Assembly: GCF_029504745.1 (NCBI RefSeq)
Contig: NZ_JAQFIQ010000040.1
Location: forward strand, 1-21,948
Length of the DNA stretch: 21,948 bases
Direction: 5' to 3'
From: Breznakia sp. PF5-3
Lineage (GTDB): Bacteria; Bacillota_I; Bacilli_A; Erysipelotrichales; Erysipelotrichaceae
Under the pieces are notes generated by a model that saw nothing but the letters and a program-made list of their open reading frames with translations, was not told where the DNA came from and did no database searches. The translations under genes were made by a program, and so were the position numbers. This document shows, one piece after another, positions 5,855 to 9,980 of this stretch (position 1 is its first letter; every line of letters starts with the position of its first letter).

Positions 5855-5928
5855 AGGGGTGTAGTACAATGGTAGTATAACGGTCTCCAAAACCGCTGAT
5901 ACGGGTTCAATTCCTGTCACCCCTGCCA
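5855..5928 (+). tRNA. tRNA-Trp (anticodon CCA), with encoded 3' CCA
   Basis: Hand-folded 74-nt cloverleaf. Acceptor AGGGGTG/CACCCCT, D stem GTAC/GTAT, anticodon stem CGGT/ACCG with loop CTCCAAA, T stem ACGGG/CCTGT with loop TTCAATT, discriminator G plus CCA. Confidence 0.88.
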
Positions 5929-6113: not shown

Positions 6114-6420
6114 GAGGAAAATAAAGATAGGAATGGTAATTTTATTAATTATGAGAGGTATACAGGTAAGAAGAAGATTAAAAGTAAAAAAGAAGTAGGG
6201 AAATTAGATAAGAAATTTAAAGAAAAACATGGAGAATATTGAAAAGAATGACCATAGTTCAAACATGTCAATTGAAGAAGCTCAAGAACTTTATTTCAGG
6301 GAAACAAAGGATTATCTGAAAGCAACTACTTTATATAAAGATGGTAAGTTGATGAGAAACTTTGGGCATTTATTCAATATGAAAATGTCATCAATTACAA
6401 GTAAAGATTTCAAATATTAA
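6114..6420 (+). pseudogene. Tyrosine-recombinase (phage integrase) N-terminal remnant, frameshifted and truncated
   Basis: One frame reads KDRNGNFINYERYTGKKKIKSKKEVGKLDKKFKEKHGEY* (arm-binding/AP2-like pattern). A shifted frame continues SIEEAQELYFRETKDYLKATTLYKDGKLMRNFGHLFNMKMSSITSKDFKY* (SAM-like core-binding pattern). No catalytic domain follows. Confidence 0.5.
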
Positions 6421-6813: not shown

Positions 6814-7881
6814 TTACTCTTTAGTTTTAGGTTTGATAGGATTAGCAAATATTACTTCTTGTTTTGGAAAGCGAATACTATCATATATTGTGCAAAGGTT
6901 TTTCGCCAAATGAAAGTCAAGGTTTTGACTAAATATATATTTATAACTATTTTGTATAATAATTTGATTATATGAATCTACTTGTGTAATATTTTCAAGT
7001 ATCTTTATTTTCTTGTGATCTTTTTGCATTGCTTTTGCATGATATTCTTTTTCATATAGTACTAATAATATAGTTGGAGACAATGGGATAATAATTTCAA
7101 CTCCAAATGAATTTATCCCAGTGGTCGAAATGATAGGGTTAGATATGCGATTAAAAACAGAAATTATACTATCTGATGTATAAAATAATGATTCGGTTTT
7201 ATTTAAATAGAAAACCCATAAATGATTATAAAATCTTTCACTTAAATCATTAAGAAAAGTAGGATCCAATAAGAAACTTAGATGATAGGCTTTAGCTCTT
7301 TCTTTTTCAGATATTGGGCTATTAATATAAACGGAAACGTCTTCATTATTTGTTCTATAAATTAAGTCTTCATAAACCTGAGGAATAACCACCTCATGCA
7401 TATCCTTAAAAAATTTCCTATTTTTTGGAGTTCTAATAAATTGAATTGCAAGGAAAAGCGAAATATTTCTTTTCTCATTTTCATCAATGCAAAAGCAGTT
7501 ATTAACTTCCCATATTGAAAATTCTTGTATGTTAGCAATAACTTTTTTTATTGCATCTCCAGAAAAACTTTCAATATCAGCTAGATAGTTTTCAAAGAGA
7601 TTCTTTTTAAATATATCAGATAATTTAAGTTTTCCTTTAGATTTAAAAAAAGTACTCACTTTTAATTTTAATATTTCTTTTTTAGAAAAGTGTTTTCTAA
7701 TAGATTCGAAATCCAAATCATAAAAATAATTTTCAGATGCTATATTTCGAATGTTTTGTTTTTCTAATGTAAGTAAGCGCTCTTTTTCAAAAACATTAAT
7801 GTAAAATCCCTTTTTTATAGGAGTACTAAAATTTTTAAGATAAAAAATAGGAATATAATGTTGTTTTTTTGTATTATTCAT
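6814..7881 (-). CDS. DUF4238-like protein (candidate anti-phage effector)
   Basis: The N-terminus MNNTKKQHYIPIFYLKNFS matches the HY[IV]PxFYLxxF signature I associate with Pfam DUF4238. The protein is about 355 aa with no TM or signal peptide. The track starts at GTG 7893; ATG 7881 with the upstream AAGGAAAGG seems the more likely start. Confidence 0.6.
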   Translation of the reverse strand: MNNTKKQHYIPIFYLKNFSTPIKKGFYINVFEKERLLTLEKQNIRNIASENYFYDLDFESIRKHFSKKEILKLKVSTFFKSKGKLKLSDIFKKNLFENYLADIESFSGDAIKKVIANIQEFSIWEVNNCFCIDENEKRNISLFLAIQFIRTPKNRKFFKDMHEVVIPQVYEDLIYRTNNEDVSVYINSPISEKERAKAYHLSFLLDPTFLNDLSERFYNHLWVFYLNKTESLFYTSDSIISVFNRISNPIISTTGINSFGVEIIIPLSPTILLVLYEKEYHAKAMQKDHKKIKILENITQVDSYNQIIIQNSYKYIFSQNLDFHLAKNLCTIYDSIRFPKQEVIFANPIKPKTKE

Positions 7882-7902
7882 AGAGTATATCACCTTTCCT
7901 TG

Positions 7903-7930
7903 TTGAAAAAAAATTCAAATTTATTATAAT
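7903..7930 (+). promoter_or_regulatory. Near-consensus sigma-A promoter driving the ncRNA/RT unit
   Basis: TTGAAA (7903-7908), 16-nt spacer, TATAAT (7925-7930). The predicted TSS is near 7937. It lies only about 10-20 nt from the divergent DUF4238 start codon. Confidence 0.6.
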
Positions 7931-7936
7931 ATAATT

Positions 7937-8215
7937 ATAGTAGAACTGAGTTAACAATACTATAGGTTTTGCTAGCATTATTGCAAAGAAATTTGCGTTG
8001 ATTTTTTGTTGGGTTGAAAGAATTGAGGCTCGTCTTTGACGAGACGCAATTCTGGCCTGTTATGGAGTGTTTGTGACGCCCTTCGGACCCAAGGTCCTCG
8101 AGCTTGTCTACAAACACTGAGCCATCCCACCATGAGGCCAGGCAAATAGAGAATTATTGAGTTACTGGATCATGACATCCCTCTAATAGAAATTAGTTTT
8201 GAAAGGAGGGATGGA
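7937..8215 (+). ncRNA. Candidate retron-type non-coding RNA (msr-msd-like); boundaries uncertain
   Basis: Three consecutive structures precede the RT. First, hairpin 7967-7972/7983-7988. Second, stem 7993-7998/8044-8049 enclosing hairpin CTCGTC-TTT-GACGAG (8029-8043). Third, a 90-nt nested hairpin at 8052-8141. That hairpin has outer stem CTGGCCT/AGGCCAG, inner 9-bp stem AGTGTTTGT/ACAAACACT and apical GGACC-CAA-GGTCC. It is about 57% GC by hand count in otherwise AT-rich DNA. Confidence 0.5.
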
Positions 8216-8217
8216 AT

Positions 8218-8415
8218 ATGAAGAATAATCGATTTAAATTAATAATTATAATTATAATCATAATGGTTCTTCCTAAAGTAATGTATCCTCAGCTGTCAAA
8301 TGAAGCAATTGATTATTATTTTAATAGCTTACAGACGGCAATAACATTGTTTTTATTTTTTAGAGATGAAAATATAATGACTGTGGGATGTCATCACTTG
8401 AACATGTGCAGATAA
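8218..8415 (+). CDS. Hypothetical small hydrophobic protein (65 aa); may be non-coding
   Basis: A strong SD AAAGGAGGG sits 8 nt before the ATG. The N-terminal segment KLIIIIIIIMVLP and a second segment AITLFLFF are hydrophobic. The codons are low-complexity AT repeats, so a spurious ORF is possible. Confidence 0.25.
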   Translation: MKNNRFKLIIIIIIIMVLPKVMYPQLSNEAIDYYFNSLQTAITLFLFFRDENIMTVGCHHLNMCR

Positions 8416-8469
8416 GTATTGTTGTTCAATAATTTGTTTGATATTTGCTTGGCGTATTCATAATTAGGA

Positions 8470-9648
8470 ATGAAGGAAGATATGGATAAAATAAAAATTA
8501 ACAAGTCAGCTCTATATGCGTGTAGTAGTAAGGTATATTTAGCGAAAATACTAAGTAATTATAAAAAGGGAATTGTTATTAATCAAAGAGAGTTGAGGAG
8601 AGTAAAGCACTTTTTTGATAATGAAGATAAAGTTTTTTATAAATCAAAAACCACAGGAGAAATATTTAGTAATAAGCCTGCTAACTATTCTCCTAAAAAA
8701 TACAGAAAATTTAATGATCCTTCTATAAAAAGAAAAGAAGTACTAAGAAGATTGAATTTTTTTTTAAAACAAATTGAGACACCAAAGTATCTTTTTTCTG
8801 TAAAAGATAAAGACTACGTAAAGAATGCAAAAATTCATCGAGGGAACTCACACTACATTATGCTAGATATAACTAGTTTTTTTCCAAATTGCGATTATAG
8901 GAATATATTTGAATGGTTATTATCTGATTCAGGTCTTGCTATGAAGCCAGATATTGCAACATGTATATGTGATTTAGTAACCTCCCCTAGAAATGGACAA
9001 TATAGAGAATTACCACAAGGTTATCCTACAAGTACATTAATTGCATATTTTTCATATAAAAAAATGTTTGATGAAATTGCCACCTTAGCTAAGTTAAGAG
9101 GGTTAAAATTCAGTACATATGTTGATGATTTGACTTTTTCATATAATGATAATATTCAACTAGATAATGAGTTTTTCATTTTAGAAATTAAGCAATTAGT
9201 TTCTAAATACGGACATAGTTTAAATGATAAAGAGAAGATATATGATTGTAGTAAACATTATAGTAGCAGTTATAATCCATTAATAACAGGAGTTTTTGTT
9301 AAACGATGGAAAATAAGAGCATCAAGAAAGTTACATAGTAAAATGATAAAAAAATACAATAAGCTCATAAACCTGAAGATAATAGATAGTACAACATATT
9401 TTGAGGCTTGGGAAATGTATCAAAGTCTTCAAGGAATTTGTATTTCAATAAACACAATTGAACCTCAAAAAACAAAAAAGAATCGTCAACACATTTTGAA
9501 TTATATTGAAAATAACAAGAAAAAGTTTCCTTTTGAAACAAATATAAAAAGAATTAAAGAATTAAGATTAGAGAAAAAAATATATGATGCTTACAGAAGT
9601 GGGACGTTGCGAGAATTTATTAGTAAGCATAGCAATATAATTTTTTAA
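8470..9648 (+). CDS. Retron-type reverse transcriptase
   Basis: The motifs are collinear with retron RTs (compared with Ec86 RT from memory). They are VKNAKIHRGNSHYIMLDITSFFPN (NAxxH plus DxxxFF), ELPQGYPTST (LPQG), FSTYVDDLTFS (YxDD catalytic motif) and PLITGVFVKRWKIRASRK (VTG-like motif). The alternative start ATG 8482 has better SD spacing. Confidence 0.85.
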   Translation: MKEDMDKIKINKSALYACSSKVYLAKILSNYKKGIVINQRELRRVKHFFDNEDKVFYKSKTTGEIFSNKPANYSPKKYRKFNDPSIKRKEVLRRLNFFLKQIETPKYLFSVKDKDYVKNAKIHRGNSHYIMLDITSFFPNCDYRNIFEWLLSDSGLAMKPDIATCICDLVTSPRNGQYRELPQGYPTSTLIAYFSYKKMFDEIATLAKLRGLKFSTYVDDLTFSYNDNIQLDNEFFILEIKQLVSKYGHSLNDKEKIYDCSKHYSSSYNPLITGVFVKRWKIRASRKLHSKMIKKYNKLINLKIIDSTTYFEAWEMYQSLQGICISINTIEPQKTKKNRQHILNYIENNKKKFPFETNIKRIKELRLEKKIYDAYRSGTLREFISKHSNIIF

Positions 9649-9756
9649 TAAACTCTTTTTTACTACTATAGGCCAGTTTTTCTGTAATATCATATATAAT
9701 ATTTTTAAATAAATTGTCGAATAAAAACTTATACTATTATAGTCAGGAGGAATATC

Positions 9757-9980
9757 ATGAAAGAAACATATAAATTAGTTAAAAATATCATTTCTTGCAA
9801 TAAATGTAAAGATATAATCGAAAGCAAATCTATTCATGATTATGAAGAATGTAAGTGTGAAGCTGTGCAATTGATGGTGGATTAGAGTATCAAAAAATCA
9901 CTGGCTTTGATGAAGATATAGATTTAAGTCCAAGTGTTTATCAAGATACTGAAAGTGGTAACTTTGTTACCTATGATTAG
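9757..9980 (+). pseudogene. Frameshifted small zinc-ribbon protein gene
   Basis: SD AGGAGG (9745-9750) precedes ATG 9757. Frame 1 reads MKETYKLVKNIISCNKCKDIIESKSIHDYEECKCEAVQLMVD* (stop at 9885). A shifted frame continues (A)IDGGLEYQKITGFDEDIDLSPSVYQDTESGNFVTYD* to 9980. This is consistent with a 1-nt indel near 9865-9872. Confidence 0.5.

Follow-up and report, generated by a model that had tools for sequence, protein, structure and literature searches.

The GC-rich hairpins that follow a near-consensus promoter in Breznakia sp. PF5-3 are the front half of a structured RNA of about 520 bases, which wraps around a small toxin-like gene beside a retron reverse transcriptase (RT). The window analyzed is a stretch of 21,948 nucleotides, and all positions given here refer to it. 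We consider it likely that the hairpins form the 5' non-coding domain of a "hybrid RNA" similar to that of type VI retrons. The RNA is structured, lies on the plus strand, is conserved together with the small ORF (SP) and the RT, and sequesters the ribosome binding site (RBS) of SP in silico. It contains both an msr-msd and the SP ORF, and its 3' end is folded back onto the 5' domain by three long-range helices (A, B and C, 97-99% paired). The whole hybrid RNA is probably one continuous transcript from a single promoter. The features are as follows, all on the plus strand.

7903-7930 (+): sigma-70 promoter, -35 box TTGAAA (7903-7908), 16-nt spacer, -10 box TATAAT (7925-7930)
7938-7974 (+): SL1, 5'-terminal hairpin of the RNA with two tiers, seen in the MFE structure; both tiers covary in relatives
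7953-7961 (+): 5' arm of pseudoknot A, AACAAUACU, in the loop and 3' side of SL1; perfect 9-bp match to 8415-8423
7977-8002 (+): SL2, short hairpin with a GAAA loop, from the MFE structure
8019-8053 (+): SL4, hairpin AGAAUUG..CUCGUC-UUU-GACGAG..CAAUUCU, from the MFE structure; 16-nt arms 88% complementary
8052-8141 (+): SL5, long GC-rich msd-like hairpin and candidate template for reverse transcription, from G+C content and covariation
8137-8148 (+): 5' arm of helix B, GCCAGGCAAAUA, a2-like, directly 3' of SL5
8151-8161 (+): 5' arm of helix C (alignment columns 301-311/629-639)
8172-8183 (+): anti-SD strand, which pairs with the SD (hairpin R) or with the SD mimic (helix D), both perfect complements
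8205-8220 (+): SD GGAGG (8205-8209) and AUG (8218-8220) of SP, the SD sequestered in hairpin R
8218-8415 (+): SP, small ORF of 65 aa, basic at the N-terminus and containing a strongly hydrophobic segment
8385-8394 (+): D', SD mimic GGGAUGUCAU within the 3'-terminal part of the SP ORF; complementary to 8172-8181 over 10 bp without mismatch
8415-8423 (+): A', 3' arm of pseudoknot A, AGUAUUGUU, beginning at the final base of the SP stop codon
8425-8435 (+): C', 3' arm of helix C, from covariation
8442-8454 (+): B', 3' arm of helix B, UAUUUGCUUGGC (8442-8453), a1-like, followed by G8454
8482-9648 (+): retron RT, 388 aa from the ATG at 8482 (NCBI start), from HMM, motifs and fold

The first-pass annotation of this DNA, made from the sequence alone, had described a TTGAAA-16 nt-TATAAT promoter pointing into a region with about 57% GC at 8052-8141, and both statements were confirmed. 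The promoter agrees with the consensus at 11 of 12 positions and is the top promoter-like site within 7700-9900, and the measured G+C content of 8052-8141 is 56.7%, compared to a window-wide value of 30.5% and to 26% in the flanking genes. In related loci the -10 box (consensus TGnTAnAAT) occupies the same alignment columns, 6-8 nt ahead of SL1, and transcription probably starts at about 7937-7940. A search of 7700-9900 for an intrinsic terminator found none. The region folds more stably than shuffled sequences, with z-scores of -4.0 (7940-8215) and -4.9 (7938-8470), and no shuffle was as good. The element had been delimited as 7903-8215, but it extends past 8215, because conserved pairing partners are located at 8385-8454; conserved structure reaches position 8454. 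No relevant family was matched in Rfam 15 at gathering or permissive thresholds. All complementarities listed in the annotation are perfect (TTTGC/GCAAA, TTGCGT/ACGCAA, CTCGTC/GACGAG, CTGGCCT/AGGCCAG, GGACC/GGTCC and ATTTGC/GCAAAT), as are the 9-bp stem AGTGTTTGT/ACAAACACT and the pair AACAATACT/AGTATTGTT. Taken as a whole, its sequence facts hold, whereas the assignment of the fold by eye needs to be revised.

About 60 related loci from gut Bacilli and Erysipelotrichaceae share one layout consisting of promoter, GC-rich RNA, a hydrophobic SP ORF of 58-72 aa and the RT. Covariation was counted on 32 non-redundant loci, and a duplex test comparing self with non-self pairing was carried out on 13 lineages. 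For 51 pairs in the 32 loci, 95.7% of the cells are standard pairs compared to 34-50% with the partners slid, compensatory changes are present at 36 of the 51 pairs, and none of 500 shuffles reaches the observed pairing values. RNAalifold yields 47 pairs, 34 of them compensatory. Stems lacking covariation among homologous loci had been named in advance as an argument against the element, and the stems do covary. No relatives were found in viral contigs, and the search downstream for an att-like direct repeat of tRNA-Trp found none.

These comparative data also decide which hairpins form the 5' part of the RNA. From the three consecutive elements drawn by eye, the long hairpin is retained, alongside SL1, SL2 and SL4, whereas the two 5' stems are not: the strands of the hairpin 7967-7988 and of the stem 7993-7998/8044-8049 belong to SL1, SL2 and SL4, and for neither was a counterpart seen in the per-sequence folds of the relatives. 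SL1 is built from an outer stem (7938-7947/7965-7974), an inner stem (7949-7951/7959-7961) and a loop with a conserved AAUA motif. Compensatory changes in relatives occur at all five pairs of SL2, with 93% of the cells pairing, and 9 of the 10 pairs of the hairpin homologous to SL4 covary. SL1-SL4 taken together are 85.7% paired in relatives compared to at most 44% with the partners slid. The window's own SL1-SL4 region scores only 13.9 bits against the covariance model built from the relatives with the filters switched off, and it is not recovered with default filters. The arrangement proposed at the outset, in which small 5' hairpins precede a long 3' hairpin on a structured plus-strand RNA associated with a retron RT, is supported.

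The core of SL5 (8062-8125) consists of a 9-bp stem (8066-8074/8110-8118) and the apical GGACC-CAA-GGUCC. Its stems (columns 205-215/246-257 and 224-227/233-236) are 92-95% paired, with compensatory changes at 10 of the 14 pairs. The outer stem 8052-8058/8135-8141, a basal extension, differs between lineages; the 7 bp described earlier are present in the sequence, but their probability in the full-length ensemble is 0.00, and 5 nt are shared with helix B, which is universally conserved. The SD was not freed when template hybridisation or RNase H removal of SL5 was mimicked in silico, and these tests revealed no thermodynamic link from reverse transcription to translation.

In each of the approximately 60 loci, the RT is preceded by an ORF of 58-72 aa that has both an SD and an AUG. 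Codon differences are synonymous in 38% of cases compared to 21% expected, and the Kyte-Doolittle hydropathy in a 15-residue window rises to 2.6-3.3 in an N-proximal segment that resembles a transmembrane helix. Searches of SP against Pfam and the PADLOC model SP_VI gave no match. The protein looks membrane-like rather than like a three-helix bundle, and it is a candidate membrane toxin and effector. Its SD is enclosed in hairpin R (8176-8183/8206-8213), which is 86.7% paired, has compensatory changes at 4 of 6 pairs and reaches a probability of 0.99; the SD is unpaired with a probability of only 0.01-0.02 in the nascent and full-length ensembles in silico. The same anti-SD strand can form helix D with the SD mimic (8172-8181/8385-8394), which covaries and favors self over non-self pairing (-14.0 versus -9.3) in 13 of 13 lineages, and which has a probability of only 1% in the thermodynamic ensemble. 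The ground-state partner of the SD mimic in the MFE structure of the window, helix E (8276-8289/8385-8399), is not conserved (-11.3 versus -9.5 kcal/mol).

Features of this kind are familiar from hok-type toxin mRNAs, which use RBS hairpins, SD mimics and long-range pairing between 5' and 3' regions; in the hok/sok type I system a small hydrophobic toxin ORF with a sequestered SD is located on an mRNA whose 5' and 3' ends pair. The hydrophobic small ORF, the sequestered SD and the pairing RNA ends are all found here. An RNA that contains no template and is only a cis-acting translational riboregulator of the small toxin, comparable to a type I toxin mRNA inhibited by 5'-3' fold-back, would fit the RBS hairpin together with the SD mimic and the long-range pairings; the RT would then use a different substrate or play a role without templating. 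This reading would also be in agreement with reports in the literature that type VI retrons yield no detectable baseline msDNA. We regard this explanation as unlikely, as the RNA strictly co-occurs with a retron RT at every locus and as SL5 follows the pattern of an msd in its size, its G+C content and its variable middle combined with a covarying stem. In addition, the equivalent stem-loop of Retron-Vpa2 and Retron-Sen3 is reverse transcribed or needed for defence. Unlike hok/sok, the locus lacks an antisense RNA gene, and the element goes together with an msd-like hairpin and a reverse transcriptase.

Pseudoknot A (columns 75-81/621-627) is 97.3% paired, 3 of its 7 pairs are compensatory with GC/AU, AU/GC and UA/CG swaps, and self pairing beats non-self pairing in 11 of 13 lineages. 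At locus L078 it is formed by a wholly different sequence, UAGCAAAUC/GAUUUGCUA, again with the 5' arm in the SL1 loop. As the SP stop codon shifts relative to A' among the lineages, the conservation of A' lies at the level of the RNA. Helix B is 99.1% paired with compensatory changes at 8 of 10 pairs and an ensemble probability of 0.99; its self duplex has -16.7 compared to -9.3 kcal/mol for non-self, and all 13 lineages favor self. G8452 and C8453 of B' are invariant, and G8454 (column 659) is present in 30 of the 32 sequences, thus not in all. Helix C is 98.3% paired with 8 of 11 pairs compensatory, and 12 of 13 lineages favor self.

The first-pass annotation had found no canonical a1/a2 pair flanking the hairpin unit, and this is borne out: no local pair between the 5' 80 nt and the region after SL5 is conserved among the 13 lineages, self pairing has -13.1 compared to -15.4 kcal/mol for non-self, and self is better in only 3 of the 13. 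Conserved pairing of the 5' region with the post-msd region, a general feature of retrons, is therefore absent at this place. One of the two candidates offered instead, ATTTGC/GCAAAT (7991-7996/8142-8147), can be discarded, as it is not conserved and has no advantage of self over non-self (-4.58 versus -4.70 kcal/mol). The other, 7953-7961/8415-8423 with the small ORF inside the RNA, is the conserved and compensatory pairing of A, but it is a loop-to-tail pseudoknot and not an a1/a2 pair. If A were the true a1/a2, priming would start from a G immediately downstream of 7961, with the 3'-terminal SP coding sequence as template instead of SL5. A is conserved and is located at the 5' end of the RNA like an a1, a G directly follows the 5' arm (column 82) in 23 of 32 sequences, and copying of D' could directly change the anti-SD switch. 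Nevertheless, we think this assignment quite unlikely: the 5' arm sits in a hairpin loop and not in a terminal duplex, column 82 is unconserved and a C in the window, the msDNA of Vpa2 derives from the msr-msd arm, where it maps to the long stem-loop, and not from SP, and the msd-like hairpin is abutted by helix B (8137-8148/8442-8453) instead. Judged from sequence, helix B, whose 3' arm is followed by a G in 30 of 32 sequences, appears to be a permuted equivalent of a1/a2, and the geometry suggests G8454 as a candidate priming G.

The RT gene begins 66 nt after the SP stop codon, and its product is 100% identical to a protein of Breznakia sp. PF5-3. The best PADLOC model for the RT is RT_VI (3.5e-57, 192 bits; next model 86 bits), which scores 172 bits at locus L013 and 252 bits at a canonical type VI locus, and Pfam RVT_1 is matched as well. 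The motifs NAxxH, YVDD and (I/V)TG are invariant in 35 homologs (N115, A116, H119, Y213-V-D-D216, T269, G270). The AF2 model has a pLDDT of 87.8, and its leading Foldseek matches are retron RTs. Retron RTs are the nearest solved sequences and folds, and the structures of DRT2 and AbiK rank well below. The next-nearest relatives (27-32% identity) belong to canonical SP-HTH-RT type VI loci with matches to RT_VI, HTH_VI and SP_VI. By HMM score and nearest relatives the protein would therefore be placed in the type VI clade (retron clade 3), and two general marks of a retron, the RT signature motifs and a structured ncRNA with msr and msd hairpins on the same strand, are found here. It had also been suggested that templating may be DRT-like, which would mean rolling-circle or homopolymer synthesis as in DRT2 or DRT9 and no retron msDNA. 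The missing canonical a1/a2 pair and the unusual architecture could be read in this way, but with RT_VI as best HMM by more than 100 bits, NAxxH and VTG-type motifs and a retron-type fold, such templating is highly improbable. A minus-strand reading, with the GC-rich element serving the adjoining divergent DUF4238 gene as 5' UTR or regulatory region, can be practically dismissed, even though the minus strand folds well too (z = -5.4), as DUF4238 is missing from all related loci that keep the RNA, the pairing partners of the element lie downstream, within and after the plus-strand SP ORF, and the 114 G.U compared to 15 A.C cells in the pairs fit the plus strand only and thus exclude a minus-strand RNA, including transcription from the minus strand alone, which had been named as a possible refutation.

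A Cro/C1 HTH gene is a defining feature of type VI according to Mestre et al. (cluster 2_1, 91-110 aa, between SP and RT), and it is absent here. The canonical type VI HTH HMM was positive at every canonical locus and at none of the approximately 60 loci of this lineage or the window. Only RT and SP are common to the 32 non-redundant loci, with no HTH as conserved neighbor, and there is no indication for an HTH fused to the RT (hhalign probability 0.4%; no Pfam match on the RT C-terminus). About 22% of the published type VI entries are also without HTH.

The earlier supposition that the architecture may differ from textbook retrons agrees with the type VI hybrid RNA. The hyRNA of Retron-Vpa2 from Vibrio parahaemolyticus (Zhang et al.) has a length of about 470 nt and three arms, its RBS and start codon are sequestered, its 3' end anneals back, and its msDNA of 63-86 nt derives from the long stem-loop (bioRxiv 10.1101/2025.10.22.683967). 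Both systems have one structured transcript of about 470-520 nt with several arms that combines an msr-msd with a small toxic (here putatively toxic) ORF, and both have the RBS in a stem, a 3' end brought back to the 5' domain by inverted repeats, an msd-sized long stem-loop ahead of the ORF and an RT of the RT_VI family. In contrast to Vpa2, whose HTH represses reverse transcription and whose loss of HTH is toxic, no HTH gene is present, SP is unrelated in sequence with a strongly hydrophobic N-proximal segment, and the host belongs to the Bacillota. With about 390 aa, the RT is also longer than those of the canonical type VI loci used for comparison, which have about 280 aa. A conserved 7-nt direct repeat in the msd loop and the riboregulator loop of Vpa2 has been proposed to link msDNA with the riboregulator (bioRxiv 10.1101/2025.10.22.683967). 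It was not found here; across the 32 loci, the SL5 region and the riboregulator share no conserved direct repeat of 6-7 nt, and a CATCCC repeat of the window only (8123-8128, 8177-8182) is at chance level. Thus, the type VI hybrid RNA is matched in the placement of the SP RBS in a stem (hairpin R) and not in the 7-nt direct repeats.

For Retron-Sen3 and the cl2075 type VI retrons (Garcia-Rodriguez et al.), a pairing is described between IR1, at the 3' terminal part of the msd-like stem-loop, and IR2, which follows the SP stop codon (bioRxiv 10.64898/2026.04.27.721009). This pair corresponds to helix B with its 5-nt overlap with the SL5 outer stem, and in both cases the SP coding region lies within a conserved RNA framework. 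Inverted repeats of this type also flank SP in canonical Bacteroidetes loci. Unlike in Sen3, where terminal inverted repeats close an ncRNA of about 280 nt, IR1-IR2 shows no significant covariation and an HTH antitoxin controls SP post-translationally, no such local pair is conserved here, helix B covaries strongly and the HTH is absent. The known type VI SPs fall into clusters cl2075, cl2760, cl3272 and cl3897 or the "Large" lineage and are three-helix-bundle-like with a hydrophobic C-terminal helix (Mestre 2020; Zhang 2025; Garcia-Rodriguez 2026); the SP of this lineage is similar in size and position and always present, without a match to PADLOC SP_VI. Compared to the canonical msr-msd of Ec86/Eco1, short msr-like hairpins are likewise followed by a long msd hairpin on the strand of the retron RT, and the msd is bordered on its 3' side by a duplex whose partner strand has a G immediately behind it. 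The partner strand, however, is located about 300 nt downstream past the ORF and not at the 5' end, a 5'-terminal a1 is lacking, an effector gene lies inside the RNA, and there is no Rfam match. Overall, the locus matches a Gram-positive version of the type VI hybrid RNA, without HTH and with a different, membrane-like SP and a longer RT.

According to this type VI-like model, a single plus-strand transcript would start at about 7938, pass through SL1-SL4, SL5, the anti-SD riboregulator, the SP coding sequence and a 40-nt tail (8415-8454), and run on into the RT gene. As the tail pairs with the 3' flank of SL5 (B and C) and with the SL1 loop (A), the toxin ORF is enclosed in an RNA scaffold. 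By analogy to Retron-Vpa2 and Retron-Sen3, the RT may bind this RNA and copy SL5 into single-stranded DNA, SP would be a toxic effector whose translation is held off, and phage infection would lead to SP synthesis and abortive infection. Since the HTH protein is absent, we infer that SP is restrained by RNA structure alone, possibly together with binding of the RT, and helix D between the anti-SD strand and the SD mimic at the end of the ORF would be the likely switch.

A more speculative possibility, which we regard as rather doubtful, is that this lineage represents a minimal retron under RNA-only control whose ncRNA is circularly permuted relative to the canonical form. In that case B' (8442-8453), as a1-like strand, and the priming G8454 would be located at the 3' end of the toxin mRNA, the a2-like strand (8137-8148) directly follows the msd, and pseudoknot A would connect the msr hairpins back to the place of priming. 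If the two ends of the RNA were joined, the textbook order a1, G, msr, msd, a2 would reappear. Synthesis of the msDNA would take place on the toxin mRNA, to which the product would remain covalently linked, and the triad of anti-SD, SD and SD mimic would replace the HTH protein as safety catch.

Type VI retrons invert the usual retron logic and are known so far from two proteobacterial systems, both described in preprints. The HTH is essential in both and its loss is toxic; it acts as repressor of reverse transcription in one and as antitoxin in the other. A widespread lineage of gut Bacillota that keeps the hybrid RNA, the hydrophobic ORF and the RT without HTH suggests that the RNA fold alone may restrain the toxin. 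The unusually strong covariation gives the hybrid RNA a concrete architecture, which combines a pair of long-range helices, a pseudoknot between loop and tail, and an anti-SD strand for which two partners compete, and it includes a specific candidate geometry for priming. This lineage would also offer a minimal two-gene system for studying the coupling of reverse transcription and translation.

The GC-rich segment upstream of the reverse transcriptase gene (RT) encodes a conserved structured RNA on the plus strand, which is co-inherited with RT and with a small hydrophobic ORF (SP). As the first-pass annotation had proposed, the segment stands out from the window (30.5% G+C), with 56.7% G+C at 8052-8141 and 45% across 8000-8199, and follows a TTGAAA-16-TATAAT promoter (7903-7930; 11 of 12 matches, the top sigma-70-like site within 7700-9900). 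Its predicted fold is more stable than those of dinucleotide shuffles (z = -4.0 for 7940-8215, z = -4.9 for 7938-8470). At gathering score the sole Rfam match in the whole window was a tRNA-Trp (5855-5925), and a permissive scan of 7880-8500 gave chance-level matches only.

Genes and helices of the locus
6814-7893, minus strand: DUF4238 gene, left neighbour of the GC-rich element
7953-7959/8417-8423, plus strand: pseudoknot A (9 bp in the window); 97.3% of cells paired, 3 of 7 pairs compensatory
8066-8076/8107-8118 and 8085-8088/8094-8097, plus strand: long msd-like hairpin SL5; 92-95% of cells paired, 10 of 14 pairs compensatory
8137-8146/8444-8453, plus strand: long-range helix B (12 bp in the window); 99.1% of cells paired, 8 of 10 pairs compensatory
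8151-8161/8425-8435, plus strand: long-range helix C; 98.3% of cells paired, 8 of 11 pairs compensatory
8178-8183/8206-8212, plus strand: RBS hairpin R; 86.7% of cells paired, 4 of 6 pairs compensatory
8218-8415, plus strand: SP, 65-aa ORF, right neighbour of the GC-rich element
8482-9648, plus strand: RT, 388 aa, starting 66 nt after the SP ORF

We found 103 RT homologs (38-55% identity) and gathered about 60 loci from scans of genome and metagenome contigs and from contig look-ups, with gut Bacilli, Erysipelotrichaceae and 'Tenericutes' MAGs as hosts. The order is identical in every locus: a GC-rich stretch of about 280 nt follows a -10 box and precedes a hydrophobic ORF (58-72 aa) that has an SD and AUG, with the RT beginning 30-97 nt downstream of that ORF. 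Among 32 non-redundant loci RT and SP are the only conserved neighbours, and DUF4238 was found in the window only. A 42-aa ORF shortly 3' of RT (9757-9885, plus strand) matches DUF7695 (E 4e-12) and is not kept beside RT in relatives. On the other side, tRNA-Trp (5855-5928), a 63-aa ORF (6229-6420; Phage_int_SAM_3, weak, E 1e-3), the DUF4238 gene and the retron form a stretch that looks like a decayed tRNA-linked island; a repeat of the tRNA-Trp end was sought downstream and not found. Two related loci (L010, L011) carry an apparent integrase C-terminus, identified by eye, immediately upstream of their RNA. In a Bacilli chromosome (CP091726.1, L030:2378-2496) a weak match to the model of the 5' hairpins (17 bits) lies upstream of frameshifted and fragmented SP and RT genes; the locus is probably a degenerating copy of this system.

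For the analysis of the structure the 32 loci were aligned with MAFFT from the promoter to the RT start, which gave a good alignment outside the ORF. RNAalifold predicted 47 pairs and found compensatory changes in 34. In the structure that we counted (51 pairs including one pseudoknot), standard pairs occupy 95.7% of the cells, compared with 34-50% after a shift of the partners by 1-3 columns; both sides change in 36 pairs, and none of 500 shuffles attained any of the observed measures. The paired columns contain 114 G.U and 15 A.C cells, an excess which identifies the plus strand as the RNA. The msr-like 5' hairpins SL1-SL4, analyzed in an alignment fitted to a covariance model from the relatives, are paired in 85.7% of cells (at most 44% with slid partners), with compensatory changes in 28 of 30 pairs. 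Against this model the 5' domain of the window itself scores a weak 13.9 bits; its MFE fold keeps the hairpin order of the relatives, with a weak or unclear SL3 counterpart. In a register-independent test, the duplex energy with the own partner was compared with that of partners from other lineages: the own partner was better in 13 of 13 lineages for helix B (-16.7 vs -9.3 kcal/mol) and for helix D, the pairing of the anti-SD strand with an SD mimic (-14.0 vs -9.3 kcal/mol), in 12 of 13 for helix C and in 11 of 13 for helix A. In one relative, L078, helix A has a wholly different sequence (UAGCAAAUC/GAUUUGCUA) and is again located in the SL1 loop.

Helices B and C are separated by an internal loop (about 8147-8151 and 8436-8443; alignment columns 297-300 and 641-647) in which bases of either strand are conserved (5' ..AGAG.., 3' ..UUGAUG.., with invariant U, G and A). 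The loop may serve as a motif for protein binding or be K-turn-like. Right after helix B (8454-8459, columns 659-664) most relatives have a G and then UUUUU. An abundant hybrid RNA could end at this terminator-like sequence, in place of which the window and L078 read GUAUUC.

The complementarities listed in the first-pass annotation are all perfect, and its 90-nt nested hairpin (8052-8141) is essentially SL5. The 7-bp outer stem of this hairpin is real in the window, with equivalents that vary by lineage, but helix B also needs 8137-8141 and prevails over it in the full-length ensemble (P = 0.99, against 0.00 for the outer stem). Its two smaller elements, hairpin 7967-7988 and stem 7993-7998/8044-8049, had no counterpart that we noticed in the folds of relatives, and their strands belong to SL1/SL2/SL4. 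The annotation saw no convincing local a1/a2 pair, and no conserved one was found across 13 lineages; its candidate 7991-7996/8142-8147 is not conserved. The second candidate (7953-7961/8415-8423) is real and, as the annotation suspected, brings the ORF into the RNA, but as a loop-tail pseudoknot; the helix adjoining the msd-like hairpin is B.

The N-terminus of SP is basic, one segment is strongly hydrophobic (Kyte-Doolittle hydropathy up to 3.05), and no family match was found in Pfam or PADLOC. Its RBS is sequestered in silico: the SD (8205-8209) pairs with the anti-SD strand, with a predicted unpaired probability of 0.01-0.02 in nascent and full-length ensembles. The 3' end of the ORF contains a 10-nt SD mimic that can pair with this strand without a mismatch (8172-8181/8385-8394). 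The pairing covaries in 13 of 13 lineages, and the mimic of L001 and L078 nearly duplicates the SD region. As both pairings are mutually exclusive, the competing partners of the anti-SD strand suggest a switch. The SD stayed paired when SL5 was blocked or removed in silico, and relatives do not conserve the partner that the mimic has in the ground state. In the MFE fold UAUCCU inside the ORF pairs with the mimic. A cDNA copy of CATCCC in the SL5 3' flank would mimic the SD. Anti-SD-like copies at 8123-8128, 8177-8182 and 8284-8289 occur in the window only, at chance level.

The RT is a retron RT. It matches PADLOC RT_VI (3.5e-57, 192 bits; other retron types at most 86 bits) and Pfam RVT_1, and NAxxH, YVDD and (I/V)TG are invariant across 35 homologs. 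The closest solved sequences are the retron RTs Ec67, Eco8, Ec83 and Ec86, and retron RTs are also the top structural matches of its AlphaFold2 model (pLDDT 87.8). A hypothetical protein of Breznakia sp. PF5-3 (Erysipelotrichaceae) has the identical sequence (100%). An HTH-like region sought in the RT profile was not found (hhalign probability 0.4%), and its C-terminus gave no Pfam match.

RT relatives at a greater distance (27-32% identity) belong to canonical type VI retrons of Bacteroidetes, which encode a 74-79 aa SP, a 98-aa Cro/C1 HTH and an RT of about 280 aa and match PADLOC RT_VI, HTH_VI and SP_VI. A profile of the canonical HTH proteins detects the HTH in all canonical loci and nothing in the window or in any of the about 60 loci of its lineage. 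In the canonical loci L069-L076 and L028 an inverted repeat, GGGGGUGG/CCACCCCC, flanks the SP ORF about 90 nt upstream of the AUG and just past the stop; it was picked up by RNAalifold and agrees with the published IR1-IR2. Three loci of other Bacilli, Salinibacillus and Virgibacillus (L025:2531-3879, L027:2568-3876, L068:775-2037), are a putative second type VI-like lineage without the type VI HTH, with a 338-aa RT (227 bits against RT_VI for L025, the one scanned) and an ORF of 80-110 aa overlapping the RT start.

The window RNA matches the recently described hybrid-RNA architecture. The hybrid RNA of Retron-Vpa2 (about 470 nt) comprises msr-msd plus the SP ORF, with RBS and AUG within stem-loops and a 3' end that anneals back via inverted repeats 'resembling a1/a2'; the long stem-loop yields an msDNA of 63-86 nt, repression of SP translation lasts until msDNA has accumulated, and the HTH acts as a repressor of reverse transcription (Zhang et al., bioRxiv 10.1101/2025.10.22.683967). 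In Retron-Sen3, IR1, which lies within the 3' portion of the msd-like stem, base-pairs with IR2 past the SP stop, and the HTH is the antitoxin; an HTH accompanies about 78% of the type VI entries (Garcia-Rodriguez et al., bioRxiv 10.64898/2026.04.27.721009). Covariation of the long-range helices is much clearer in the window lineage than was reported for Sen3. In contrast to the described systems, the window lacks an HTH, its SP is unrelated and membrane-like, and its RT is longer (about 390 aa); the 7-nt direct repeat of type VI hybrid RNAs was not found in the 32 loci.

The feature is real and belongs by architecture and RT to the type VI hybrid-RNA kind, and it is placed as a variant rather than a plain member because the HTH gene of the type VI definition (clade-3 RT plus Cro/C1 HTH; Mestre et al. 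2020, PMC7736814) is absent. The 5' arm of helix B lies directly 3' of the msd-like hairpin and a G follows its 3' arm in 30 of 32 sequences. It is tempting to speculate that helix B has a1/a2 geometry; in that case the RNA would correspond to a circularly permuted canonical retron RNA whose connecting loop carries the toxin ORF, with pseudoknot A perhaps keeping the msr domain close to the priming site. Transcription would run from the 7903-7930 promoter through at least 8454. By analogy with the described systems, the RT would bind SL1-SL4 and copy SL5, and SP may be a toxic effector released on infection.
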